From a virus: a DNA stretch of 64,000 bases. Where the stretch lies: positions 32,001 to 96,000 of IMG/VR virus record IMGVR_UViG_3300027749_000060. The stretch is one strand, 5' to 3'. Of this stretch, positions 10,619 through 64,000 are shown piece by piece. Positions within the stretch are counted from its first letter, which is position 1. Each line of letters begins with the position of its first letter. The position numbers and the translations under genes are program-made. Under the pieces are notes generated by a model. That model searched no databases, had not been told where the DNA came from, and saw nothing but the letters and a program-made list of their open reading frames with translations.

Positions 10619-10635
10619 GGCCAGGTTTTTCCCGA

Positions 10636-60757: not shown

Positions 60758-61203
60758 CGGTACTCTGATCGATTTGAGTCTAATTTTGTTTTATTTACAT
60801 AACGTGCATCAGGATCTGCTTGTTCTTGCTCAAATGCTTCGGTTAATACATTTCGGCAAATTTCTTGGAACCATAAATCAACAATTTGTTGATCGGTCTT
60901 TCCTTTGTATCCTGCACGAACCAACTTGGCCAAGAAAATCTCATTCCAGTCTAGCTCGAATGCACCATTGCCAACATTATCAGGATCAATTTCTACACCA
61001 ATAACAGATACCCATGGTTCACCGGCAGCAGTAGCTTTATCTTTTTCTGACGTTACCGATACTGCTACTACAGGCTCTTTAGGCTTGCTTTTACTACGGC
61101 GTGCTTTCGGTGCTTTGGGTTCTTCGGGGACTACAACCGGGTTGGCCTCAACCGGTGGCGGCATAGATTCTTTTTTTCCAAATACTTTATCAAATAGTCC
61201 CAT
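60754..61203 (-). CDS. Hypothetical protein
   Basis: 149 aa; EPWV...GAFELDWN..F. Confidence 0.7.
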   Translation of the reverse strand: MGLFDKVFGKKESMPPPVEANPVVVPEEPKAPKARRSKSKPKEPVVAVSVTSEKDKATAAGEPWVSVIGVEIDPDNVGNGAFELDWNEIFLAKLVRAGYKGKTDQQIVDLWFQEICRNVLTEAFEQEQADPDARYVNKTKLDSNRSEYR

Positions 61204-61225
61204 GATTTTAAATCTTTCTTTATAG

Positions 61226-61321
61226 TTATTCTCTATCTACTCTAGCATCTTCGTTGGAACGATAGCACATATATAATACGCCTATAATATAACCAAGCAA
61301 GAAACACAAAAAGTAATTCAT
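61226..61321 (-). CDS. 31-aa membrane peptide
   Basis: MNYFLCFLLGYIIGVLYMCYRSNEDARVDRE*; fills the gap 1 nt after the previous stop. Confidence 0.45.
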   Translation of the reverse strand: MNYFLCFLLGYIIGVLYMCYRSNEDARVDRE

Positions 61322-61322
61322 G

Positions 61323-61520
61323 CTAGTTAATGCCAAACCGTTGTTTAATCATGCCAGCTGCTCCCAAACTGGTCATTTGAGTAGTACTACCTTTATCACA
61401 TATATCAATGCACTCTAATAGGATTAGTTTTGCAAAACGCTCTTGTATATCCGGATTAATGTCAGGATAAAAACTTCCACCAGCCATTAATTGTAAATTT
61501 TTAAGTAATTCTTTATTCAT
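61323..61520 (-). CDS. Small hypothetical protein
   Basis: MNKELL...ERFAKLILLECI...IKQRFGI; start placed 1 nt after the queE stop. Confidence 0.6.
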   Translation of the reverse strand: MNKELLKNLQLMAGGSFYPDINPDIQERFAKLILLECIDICDKGSTTQMTSLGAAGMIKQRFGIN

Positions 61521-61521
61521 A

Positions 61522-62388
61522 TTAAGTACCCCACTCATTTTTAAATAACGGTACTTGTAGCCTATCACTGTACCGTAGTCCGTGTTTCATTGCCAACAAT
61601 GCCACATTACGATTGTTTAATGCATACACACTTTCAACACCGCCCACTGGCATTAGATACACATGCCCTGTAAATCCTGCTGCACGATATTCAGCAATGG
61701 CACGTTCTGCATCTTCAAAATCTTCCTGTGTGGCAATAACAAACTTTAAATATGCTGTGCCGTATTCTTCATATTCACAAACTACTTCGGGTAGAATAGC
61801 TTCTTCCCACGGCTCACCACTACAAGGCAATTTGGCACTTACTGAGAAGGTAATCTCACGCCAAAAGTCTTGATCATGATGTGATTTCCATGTGTGCAAA
61901 TACGAAGCAAAGTCTAGAGCAAGTTTCTGAGTACCATTGGTTTCAAATGTAATTTCTTTCAAGCCAGCCATCTTAGGATGATTTAACAAATCTGGATAAG
62001 CACGTTGCCATCCCAGCAATGGTTCGCCTCCGGTGATAACCAAATGCTCATCGCGCCACTCACCATGCGGAAGTATTTCCATAATGCGTTCTACAATTGC
62101 ATCTGTCGTTAACATTGGACTTAGATCTTTAAATGCTGGATCCCAGCTGGCATAGCTATCGCAGCCTGTGCTTACTAACGGGAGCTCTTCATACTTTTGA
62201 AAAGGGGTAACCAATGAATGTGTAGCTGCAATACCAGCAGCCTCCATACTTAATTCTCCGCGTGGCATACCAAACCCTGCACATTTAAAATTACATCCAA
62301 ATGTACGTAAGAAAACAGACGGCACACCCATGTAACGTCCTTCACCTTGGATGCTGTAGAACAGCTCTGCTATTTTAATTTTGCTCAT
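61522..62388 (-). CDS. queE: 7-carboxy-7-deazaguanine synthase (radical SAM)
   Basis: ELFYSIQGEG...VFLRTFGCN, ITGGEP, ETNGT, RLQV; clustered with queD. Confidence 0.88.
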   Translation of the reverse strand: MSKIKIAELFYSIQGEGRYMGVPSVFLRTFGCNFKCAGFGMPRGELSMEAAGIAATHSLVTPFQKYEELPLVSTGCDSYASWDPAFKDLSPMLTTDAIVERIMEILPHGEWRDEHLVITGGEPLLGWQRAYPDLLNHPKMAGLKEITFETNGTQKLALDFASYLHTWKSHHDQDFWREITFSVSAKLPCSGEPWEEAILPEVVCEYEEYGTAYLKFVIATQEDFEDAERAIAEYRAAGFTGHVYLMPVGGVESVYALNNRNVALLAMKHGLRYSDRLQVPLFKNEWGT

Positions 62389-62653
62389 AAATGTTAGACC
62401 ATTTCTTAAGTTTTTCAATCTTTGCTTTTTTTGCAACTTCTAAGTTGTCTATGGATATTACACCCAACTCAAGCATAATGTCAATCATTGCGAGCATATC
62501 GCCCAATTCTTCTTCAAGATGCTCTCGATTGGTTTTAGGTTTACCCGGTTTTACATTGTCGGCTCCAAAGCGATTAATTTTACTAACTGCTTGGATTACC
62601 TCTGCACATTCTTCTTGAAGAATATCCATTACTTCTTTTTCTTTAGCATTCAT
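62375..62653 (-). CDS. MazG-like NTP pyrophosphohydrolase
   Basis: EECAE...EEELGD (ExxE...ExxD). Confidence 0.8.
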   Translation of the reverse strand: MNAKEKEVMDILQEECAEVIQAVSKINRFGADNVKPGKPKTNREHLEEELGDMLAMIDIMLELGVISIDNLEVAKKAKIEKLKKWSNIYEQN

Positions 62654-62671
62654 TCGCTATGTCTTTCAGTA

Positions 62672-63280
62672 TTAATAATAAGGTCCAAAATCTGGAGTAC
62701 GTTGATATCTTGCAACATATGCATTCCACATTAGAGAAAAATCGTTGCAGGTAAACAAACTAATTAACTGCTTTTGATTTAAATAGTTTTCAGTATGTGT
62801 ACCTACTGTTTTGTTTATTAGTGCTACATATTGATCTGCTACTGGTAAATCAAATGCTTGCAATAATCTAACTGATTTTTTTAGCGTATCTTGGCTACCT
62901 GCTAAGTCGTCAACTAGTAAAATAGGATTACCGGTTACTCTGCCTTCGGTGAAATTTAATAATCCGTACGATTTACGTGTTTTTTTTAAACTAATCATTG
63001 GTGACCCTAATATTTGAGCCATACCAAATCCTAGTGTAATTCCTGCATCCTCGCATGCCCCAATTTGCACATTAGTATGCGGCAATTTTTCTATTAGAAG
63101 TTCTGCTGCTGTAGTTACAAACTTAGGATCAAATAAACATCTACGCAAATAGAATTGCCAATAGTAAGAATCATTTGCTGCTTTTGCTGGAATTGCTGCT
63201 TGCCCATCTGGCACTCTATAAATGCCGCGATGCTCAATTTCGTTTCTTAAATAAATCCATTTTTCGTTACTAATGCTCAT
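62672..63280 (-). CDS. Type I phosphoribosyltransferase-like protein
   Basis: K..K.YG...EG and PRPP-binding loop ILLVDDLAGSQDT; ATGA-coupled to queD. Confidence 0.7.
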   Translation of the reverse strand: MSISNEKWIYLRNEIEHRGIYRVPDGQAAIPAKAANDSYYWQFYLRRCLFDPKFVTTAAELLIEKLPHTNVQIGACEDAGITLGFGMAQILGSPMISLKKTRKSYGLLNFTEGRVTGNPILLVDDLAGSQDTLKKSVRLLQAFDLPVADQYVALINKTVGTHTENYLNQKQLISLFTCNDFSLMWNAYVARYQRTPDFGPYY

Positions 63281-63774
63281 GCAAATAAGTCCTCGTTCCA
63301 TTCACGATGTCCTTCACGGAAAGCCATATTGGCCTGTGTCTCACGCACTTCCACACGATAACACCACAGTCGCTTGGCTTCACCTTCGCCCCAGTAGTCG
63401 GGGATATAAACACCATTGACATACTTGTACAGCATGTCACTCAGCGACTCGCATCCCATGGCTGGCAGGATAGTCAGTTTGGCCAACTTACGGCGTTCCA
63501 TTTCTTTGTAGAACTCAAGTTCTGGATCATCATGTGCCACCAGAGTTGTGTGATCAAATTGGTCTTCTAATATCTTTTTAAGTTCTTTCAATCCGCCGTA
63601 GTCAGCAACCCAGTTGCGAACGTCTAAGTCGTTGGTTCCAAAATAGAACTTCATACTAAACGAGTAACCGTGATTCATATTGCAATGACTATCGGCCCTC
63701 CATTGTCTATAAGCGCAAGGAAATGCGTCTATGTACTCTTTTGTACTAGTGTACTTGTATGTGATTGGGGTCAT
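63277..63774 (-). CDS. queD: 6-carboxy-5,6,7,8-tetrahydropterin synthase (QueD/PTPS family)
   Basis: C...HGY, DYGGLK, FDH, E.L and VEVRET T-fold motifs. Confidence 0.85.
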   Translation of the reverse strand: MTPITYKYTSTKEYIDAFPCAYRQWRADSHCNMNHGYSFSMKFYFGTNDLDVRNWVADYGGLKELKKILEDQFDHTTLVAHDDPELEFYKEMERRKLAKLTILPAMGCESLSDMLYKYVNGVYIPDYWGEGEAKRLWCYRVEVRETQANMAFREGHREWNEDLFA

Positions 63775-63781
63775 GCTGTTT

Positions 63782-63856
63782 CTCCTATGTTAATTATAGC
63801 ATAGGCGGCGGAGTTTGTAAAGCGGGACGATGCCGATAGACCGCTGTATGTATTTA
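63782..63856 (-). promoter_or_regulatory. Structured queD leader: late box, pseudoknot, nested sigma70 promoter, SD-sequestering hairpin
   Basis: TAAATA 63851-63856; P1 63841-45/63821-25; P2 63832-35/63806-09; TTTACA-17-TATAAT 63793-63821; hairpin 63800-05/63784-89. Confidence 0.6.
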
Positions 63857-63858
63857 TC

Positions 63859-64000
63859 TTATTGTTCGGATACGTTTAGTATTTGAGCTGCTTGAACATC
63901 ATCTTCTAAAATATTACCATTCTCATCTACTAGACAGATTTTAATTGGATTACTAATACGCATATAGGAACCATCAATAATCCATTGATCGTCAATTCCG
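63859..64000 (-). CDS. 3' end of a hypothetical protein
   Basis: Open frame ...GIDDQWIIDGSYMRISNPIKICLVDENGNILEDDVQAAQILNVSEQ*. Confidence 0.55.
   Translation of the reverse strand, partial: GIDDQWIIDGSYMRISNPIKICLVDENGNILEDDVQAAQILNVSEQ

Follow-up and report, generated by a model that had tools for sequence, protein, structure and literature searches.

What controls the queD-like gene of this phage, whose start codon follows a short leader in which pairing segments, a Shine-Dalgarno (SD) sequence and two promoter-like motifs are crowded together? The window, by which we mean the whole 64-kb stretch of DNA analyzed here, is part of a 109-kb IMG/VR record (G000). Its queD leader consists of the 84 bases at 63775-63858 on the minus strand, between the stop of the upstream open reading frame (ORF) at 63859 and the queD start at 63774; queD is followed by an unassigned ORF of 209 amino acids and by MazG-like and radical-SAM QueE-like genes. 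A first-pass annotation, made from the sequence alone, had read the leader as a pseudoknot followed by a hairpin over the ribosome-binding site, with one promoter in front of the knot and another written inside it.

The queD leader and its elements

Read 5′ to 3′ on the minus strand, the leader runs GATAAATA, 5 nucleotides, AGCGG, a 15-nucleotide loop, CCGCU, UUACAAACUCCGCCGCC, CCUAUG, 10 nucleotides and CAUAGG. This last segment overlaps AGGAG, which is followed after 7 nucleotides by the queD AUG. All of the leader elements in the first-pass annotation were recovered on the minus strand at the same positions (Table 1), and the observation of these elements is confirmed as real.

Table 1. Coordinates of the queD leader elements and associated features in the 64-kb window
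Feature	Position	Strand	Remark
GATAAATA box, T4-late-like promoter motif	63851..63858	-	predicted start ~63845, the first P1 base
P1 5′ strand AGCGG	63841..63845	-	partner 63821-63825
L1 UCUAUC (Y-C-U plus variable-length spacer)	63835..63840	-	
P2 5′ strand GGCA	63831..63834	-	partner 63804-63807
U, then P2b 5′ strand CG	63828..63830	-	U faces C63808 (invariant U·C)
L2: U plus invariant C adjoining P1 3′ strand	63826..63827	-	position of the preQ1-I specificity base (PMC11625349)
P1 3′ strand CCGCU	63821..63825	-	covariation
L3 (tail) UUACAAACUC, A-rich, conserved YUC at end	63811..63820	-	
P2b 3′ strand CG, then C63808	63808..63810	-	
P2 3′ strand CGCC	63804..63807	-	last two C common to the SD-hiding hairpin
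Hairpin CCUAUG (63805-63800), 10-nt loop, CAUAGG (63789-63784)	63784..63805	-	GG of the SD lies within the 3′ arm
Internal promoter, -35-like TTTACA	63816..63821	-	overlaps P1 end and L3
Internal promoter, extended -10 TGcTATAAT in hairpin loop	63793..63801 (TATAAT 63798-63793)	-	predicted start ~63786
Shine-Dalgarno AGGAG	63782..63786	-	
queD-like gene, T-fold, PTPS family, CxxxHGY, 165 aa; AUG 63774-63772	63277..63774	-	Pfam PF01242, E = 6.9e-15
ATAAATA sites	642, 4989, 6776, 10635, 10655, 16690, 17330, 22780, 37500, 43265, 57697, 58817, 63851		

Tests on the single sequence gave little guidance. The nested-only minimum free energy (MFE) fold of the leader was no better than that of shuffled sequences (z = -0.33); because pseudoknots are outside the model of such folding, it is uninformative here. 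The number of promoter-like sites in 61000-64000 equaled the shuffle expectation. Rfam scans at E ≤ 10, of window positions 63000-64000 and of 20 relatives, returned no family matching the leader, and blastn searches of 50,697 phage records, with the leader plus queD and with a consensus-like leader, gave no real match. Our literature searches found no description of this leader element. Chance is not excludable from the window alone, and it is the comparison with relatives that settles the matter.

Conservation of the pseudoknot and its link to queD

Relatives were collected by two routes. An IMG/VR search with the QueD protein yielded at least 594, and among the best 80 of these at least 594 the motif was found directly upstream of queD at 75 loci; three of the five remaining loci end before the leader and two are without the motif. 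Independently, IMG/VR was scanned with a DNA pattern derived from the P1 3′ strand and L3, for which at least 120 matching loci exist. Of 80 loci among the matches listed, 78 were real and 2 were chance matches within genes. At all 78 real loci among the matches listed, the first gene downstream is queD, except where a small ORF has been inserted and queD comes second; the QueD homologues at these loci are 34-91% identical to that of the window. Since ORFs are inserted before queD in four relatives, the RNA element heads the operon and not queD as such. The inserted ORFs are located at L054:606-1487 (293 amino acids), L086:6345-6602 (85), L133:6409-6750 (113, a cupin) and L145:4432-5163 (243); those of L054, L086 and L145 have no Pfam match.

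A covariance model (R1), built without the window sequence, detected exactly one copy of the element in the window (35 bits) and in the whole 109-kb record, and exactly one per record in five others of 229-382 kb, of which four are 95-100% complete. When the pattern was run against 185,579 prokaryote genomes (one per species), three matches were obtained, two of them by chance in coding DNA. The third, the sole real instance from outside the phage collection, is on CAZXGO010000106.1, an 8-kb contig of a Chitinophagales metagenome-assembled genome (MAG); this is probably a phage contig that was binned with the MAG. The three cultured phages closest by QueD, ACP17, X1 and R5C, gave no covariance-model match; in each of them queD abuts or overlaps the gene before it and so has no leader.

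We then examined base pairing in these leaders. A MAFFT alignment of 55 QueD-found leaders (A1) was replaced by two others, because the variable length of L2 misaligns P2 in A1: 23 leaders aligned plainly with MAFFT (A2), and 92 distinct model-aligned sequences (A3) that were fitted to P2 and not to P1. Eighty of the A3 sequences came from a pattern search in which part of P1 and L3 is fixed, and the invariance of those bases in A3 is therefore partly by construction. In A2, P1 was 100% paired with two covarying pairs, and 5 of the 7 pairs of P2, a 7-bp loop-to-tail helix, were changed on both sides. In A3, 450 of 450 P1 cells were paired (100%, 90 distinct sequences). Three P1 positions covaried (AU/UA, GC/UA/CG and CG/AU/UA), as did all seven P2 pairs, one of them with five pair types. 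The values observed in A3 were reached by 0 of 500 shuffles, and sliding the partner by 1-3 columns lowered pairing from 88-90% to 22-54%. Versions of P2 present in the family include GGCA/UGCC, GGCG/CGCC, GGCU/AGCC, GGUG/CACC, GACA/UGUC, ACGUCAU/AUGUCGU and AUGGCAU/AUGUCAU. The P1 helix AGCGG/CCGCU of the first-pass annotation is therefore paired in every sequence and covaries at three positions; covariation among phage queD leaders, which the annotation had named as a check, is present in both helices.

The annotation had also drawn an H-type pseudoknot resembling preQ1-I ahead of queD. The knot is conserved in relatives and its P2 covaries throughout, but the register proposed for P2, CGGC with GCCG, lies 2 nucleotides off that of the family, in which GGCA pairs with CGCC and leaves an A·C mismatch in the window. 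The CGGC/GCCG register can form in the window, but it clashes with the family-supported inner helix. This helix, P2b (C63829-G63809 and G63828-C63810), is set off from P2 by an invariant U·C. Its C-G pair is invariant, and its R-Y pair, A-U in 88 sequences and G-C in 4, is never broken; the window (UCG with CCGC) is one of the four G-C cases.

The unpaired positions are also constrained. The base before the P1 3′ strand is C in 90/90 sequences and is preceded by U in 75, C in 11 and A in 4, and the closing pair of P1 is G-C in 90/90. The first base of L1 is U in 43, C in 36 and A in 11, with C as the second base in 87/90. Invariant, besides the C next to the P1 3′ strand, are the GG/CC at the top of P1, three A's of L3, and the U, C and G of the YUCYGC block; the three A's, the U and the C of L3 are likewise invariant in the 55-sequence QueD-derived alignment, which is free of the DNA-pattern bias. 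Taken together, these data show the structure, its conservation and an exclusive link to queD.

Expression platforms and promoters

The same aptamer precedes platforms of several designs, every one of which contains, in the initiation region of the gene itself, a complement to the P2 3′ strand or to its 3′ end. In the design of the window (type a, CC-UAUG...CAUA-GG) the target is the SD. It is the AUG in type b (UGUCGUC with GAUGGCA) and in type c (GCC-AUUG...CAAU-GGC, with CAAUGGC as the target strand), both identified with RNAalifold. Rarer platforms use ACUCC/GGAGU at the SD, GUCU/AGAC at the bases just 3′ of the SD, and UGUCAU/AUGACA at the AUG. In MFE folds of the platform alone, the P2 3′ strand contributed two or more bases to pairing with the region from the SD to AUG+4 in 141 of 144 unique leaders. 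Strand-swap controls gave 98% of type a leaders with at least two bases paired versus 51% when swapped, and 100% of type b leaders with at least five bases paired versus 18%. The type a hairpin itself is 99.2% paired in 65 distinct sequences; its covariation is slight, consisting of CCUAUA/UAUAGG in one relative (L135) and G·U wobbles. The competing complementarities are thus shown across the platform types.

Being complementary to the SD or AUG of its own gene, the P2 3′ strand can enter either the knot or the sequestering helix but not both, so knot formation should free the ribosome site. We infer from this that knot formation turns translation on. The first-pass annotation had the hairpin burying the SD, and its implication for the bound state is reversed here: the anti-SD or anti-AUG is none other than the P2 3′ strand, and the knot should release the site. 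With the aptamer withheld, the unpaired probability of the ribosome site changed from 0.29 to 0.48 in type b, from 0.44 to 0.61 in type c and from 0.52 to 0.60 in type a, so that the predicted gain in accessibility is modest in the subtype of the window, where only two C-G pairs are contested. An ON switch for a biosynthetic gene departs from the usual feedback logic, which speaks against reading the leader as an ON riboswitch. The add adenine riboswitch is a precedent for translational activation, in which the 3′ strand of the aptamer otherwise sequesters the ribosome site. The queD leader resembles it in that the aptamer 3′ strand doubles as the sequestering strand, and differs in being a pseudoknot and not a three-way junction. 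Leader peptides starting at upstream AUGs in P2 or the hairpin were considered and rejected; these AUGs are without an SD and are inconsistent among the subtypes.

Two promoter-like motifs bear on which transcripts would carry the knot; the statistics for both are uncorrected for shared ancestry. The first is the ATAAATA-type box that the annotation had placed, as a late box, just 5′ of the knot. In the window, ATAAATA occurs 13 times against an expected 37.8 ± 6.5, a three-fold depletion, and 12 of the 13 sites are intergenic, most of them with 19-36 nucleotides to the next ORF start; at queD this spacing is 76 nucleotides because the RNA element adds length. A TAAATA box ends 3-12 nucleotides before P1 in 60 of the 71 type a leaders that have one. 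Like a T4-like late promoter (TATAAATA box), the motif is avoided in genes and sited just upstream of gene starts, and by its sequence distribution ATAAATA behaves as a real phage promoter box, in agreement with the annotation. Two of the boxes, at 10635 and 10655, face outward between divergent genes.

The second motif is the σ70-like promoter within the platform, TTTACA-17-TATAAT with TG, which scored 11/12 and was the top promoter-like site in 61000-64000. Counting it as kept at a score of at least 9/12, we found it in 93 of 104 unique type a leaders, always with the TG and a spacer of 17-18 nucleotides, and in 12/12 cases in which QueD is less than 45% identical to that of the window; types b and c score 5-8 of 12 at the same positions. 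The C that makes the "ACA" of the -35 is restricted to the type a platform. Within type a, the -35 "ACA" and the -10 TAnnnT are both present in 92 leaders, both missing in 6 and mixed in 6, counts that are uncorrected for shared ancestry. In the hairpin loop, the T and A of the -10 are found in 96/96 and the final T in 88/96, with variable middle positions, which is the classic -10 pattern; as the terminal UAA of the loop is also conserved, a constraint at the RNA level could account for part of this -10-like conservation. Retention in relatives thus backs the annotated internal promoter as a predicted element.

The other subtypes have a different arrangement. An upstream σ70-like promoter was found in 21/38 type b, 6/8 type c and 5/106 type a leaders (uncorrected for ancestry), and its -10 hexamer ends 6-9 nucleotides before P1 in 22/23 type b/c cases, which places the start of the aptamer at the 5′ end of the transcript. 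This complementary distribution of promoters among the subtypes supports host-type transcription that bypasses the sensor in type a, and it fits the annotation's suggestion of a switch confined to the long transcript. We note that the strong SD and TTGACA/TATAAT promoters of the motif phages are unlike Bacteroidota signals.

A comparable arrangement is known from genes e, soc and 49 of T4, whose ribosome-binding-site hairpins are promoter dependent: a short transcript without the 5′ arm is freely translated. At the sequence level the queD leader shares with them an SD-hiding hairpin with a promoter inside. Unlike in T4, the inner promoter here is σ70-like and presumably early while the outer one is late-like ATAAATA, so that the timing would be reversed, and the long transcript also bears a candidate sensor.

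Possible ligands and competing readings

The reading that we favor, and consider somewhat better than an even bet, is that the leader is a phage-specific cis-regulatory RNA, an ON riboswitch for a guanine-like compound that can be bypassed by the internal promoter. In this model, transcription from the ATAAATA-box promoter would place at the 5′ end of the queD mRNA an H-type pseudoknot of ~42 nucleotides, with a 5-bp P1, a P2 of 4-7 bp plus the 2-bp inner helix, an A-rich L3 and the invariant C. Most likely it would respond, as a riboswitch, to a guanine-like compound that belongs to the phage 7-deazaguanine pathway or its surroundings. The P2 3′ strand would have two alternative partners, the aptamer loop (forming the knot) or the gene's own ribosome site; in the window, the CCUAUG/CAUAGG hairpin would be closed at its base by pairing between the CC of CGCC and the GG of AGGAG. 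A stabilized knot would weaken the hairpin, and the SD would consequently open, turning the switch on. The internal promoter of type a would yield a transcript that starts in the 3′ arm of the hairpin, without the aptamer and with a free SD, so that regulation would apply only to the long transcript. Ligand binding, and the activity and timing of both promoters, are what we infer in this scheme.

What the ligand may be is suggested by the pathway. A canonical QueC is missing from five large genomes that bear the motif, where the only matches were weak and partial, and a T-fold protein with an LxxxHRHxF signature is present in all six motif-bearing records examined (that of the window and the five large ones). 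LxxxHRHxF is the signature of DpdL, a proposed CDG decarboxylase; DpdL phages have FolE, QueD, QueE and DpdA, no QueC, and 7-deazaguanine in their DNA (PMC10516641, in which riboswitches are unmentioned). Because QueC is missing and DpdL is present, preQ0 and preQ1 are not predicted products of the motif phages, and 7-deazaguanine, CDG or guanine is at least as likely a ligand as preQ0/preQ1. For an ON switch whose specificity base is a cytosine, the candidate ligands are 7-deazaguanine, CDG, guanine (released by DpdA) and a pterin intermediate. The DpdL-type T-fold gene of the window's record (LGFPHRHIF, L220:449-898, minus strand) is clustered with a 543-amino-acid TGT/DpdA-like gene (DSGGFQ, L220:1473-3104, minus strand), the cluster corresponding to G000 100648-103303.

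A stronger version of the ON-riboswitch reading, which we put forward tentatively and regard as having about one chance in three, is that the element is a new and nearly virus-only riboswitch class with a non-preQ1 guanine-like ligand, which turns queD on and, in type a, senses only on transcripts from the ATAAATA promoter. The ligand would then be 7-deazaguanine or CDG made by the QueC-less DpdL route, or guanine freed when DpdA swaps DNA bases. According to PMC9004378, riboswitches are rare in phages, and those it reports belong to classes also known from bacteria; a knot that is retained by hundreds of uncultured phages, most of them large and of freshwater type, would amount to a riboswitch class that originated in viruses. 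The element sits at the entry of a pathway that replaces guanine in phage DNA, and its ligand would reveal which deazaguanine compound is handled by QueC-less, DpdL-bearing phages, a question raised in PMC10516641. A preQ1-I-like core combined with inverted logic would show the rewiring of a minimal aptamer fold, and the nested promoter offers a testable case in which promoter choice decides whether an mRNA carries a sensor.

The nearest likeness of the queD knot is the type I preQ1-I riboswitch (RF00522), for example that of Carnobacterium antarcticum (PMC11625349, PMC10018353). PreQ1-I is an H-type knot with a G-C floor, in which L1 begins with U, L3 is rich in A and the SD falls within P2 or beside it; its specificity C, which is strictly conserved and immediately 5′ of the P1 3′ strand, is preceded by U in type I and by A in types II and III, the L1 U (UU) reads N9 of the ligand, and the last A of L3 contacts the ligand with P2 directly next to it (PMC11625349). 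The two have in common the H-type fold, a 5-bp P1 with a closing G-C pair, an invariant C mostly after U, the A-rich L3, a 7-deazaguanine pathway gene downstream, and translation as the controlled process. They differ in L1 (Y-C-U in the queD knot, UU in preQ1-I), in P2 (6-9 bp with an internal U·C mismatch versus 3-4 bp) and in L3, whose junction with P2 seems less direct in the queD knot, with a conserved YUC added ahead of the inner P2 helix. In the queD leader the SD is outside the knot, 18 nucleotides after P2, but it is within or abuts the P2 3′ strand in preQ1-I; all known preQ1 classes repress, whereas the queD knot is predicted to activate; and the queD knot is essentially limited to uncultured phages without QueC.

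These likenesses, together with the UAUG/CAUA of the hairpin, which adjoins P2 and could stack on it, lend some weight to a rival in which the leader is a divergent preQ1-I riboswitch and preQ1 or preQ0 represses queD translation as OFF feedback, P2 stacking on the SD hairpin and stabilizing it. The annotation had pointed to the preQ1-I, -II and -III models as a check, and none of them matched: RF00522 (gathering threshold 39 bits), RF01054 and RF02680 gave no match at E ≤ 10 in window positions 63000-64000 or in 20 diverse member loci, and over the whole 109-kb record RF00522 gave only matches of 10-11 bits, none of them at the leader. The SD is moreover not in P2, knot and sequestering helix compete in every platform type, the SD or AUG being complementary to the P2 3′ strand, and the five large genomes without canonical QueC, like the record of the window, carry DpdL (PMC10516641). 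By likeness the element is a preQ1-I-type knot, but it cannot be filed as a member of RF00522, and we regard OFF control by preQ1 or preQ0 as unlikely.

The pseudoknot might instead be an operator for a phage or host protein and no sensor of a small molecule. There is precedent in T4, where a pseudoknot at the 5′ end of the gene 32 mRNA nucleates autoregulation by gp32, and a conserved 5′-terminal knot with invariant single-stranded bases, restricted to phages and present once per genome, would suit such a role. The element stays constant, however, while QueD diverges to 34% identity and ORFs are inserted before queD, and its junction resembles a known ligand pocket, which makes a protein operator quite improbable in our judgment. 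Least likely of all is that nothing is sensed and a fixed structure sets the translation or stability of the long transcript, with purely temporal control by promoter choice as in T4 e and soc but reversed in timing: the conserved internal promoter of type a, the promoter-like behavior of the ATAAATA boxes and a hairpin/promoter overlap exactly as in the T4 cases would fit, but types b and c keep the same knot and competing complementarity without an internal promoter, and a fixed structure would have no need of two exclusive partners for one strand across six platform designs.

Several further features were seen in these phages. The motif CxxxHGY is found in the QueD of the window (63277-63774, minus strand), its relatives, ACP17, X1 and R5C (alignment A6). 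The signature given for QueD is CxxxHGH, both histidines of which bind zinc (PMC10516641), and the exact reaction of the CxxxHGY proteins may differ from that of bacterial QueD. An N-terminal QueD extension of ~20-25 amino acids (e.g., MALSSTQDLIKHMEQNLPY...) occurs in L017, L018, L022, L024, L027, L036, L042, L079 and L080, and at loci with the extended QueD the RNA element moves along with the true start codon. Finally, a second queD-type element was considered at folE, whose leader (L216:2450-2525, minus strand; G000 98149-98224) lies ~2.2 kb past the window end, and was rejected, as covariance model R2 gave no match there with filters off and only a small GGCA/UGCC hairpin is present. This leader contains TTGACT-18-TATAAT with TAAATA in the spacer; the hairpin, GGCA-AUCCUC-UGCC, lies 3′ of it, and its loop UCCUC is complementary to the SD GGAG.
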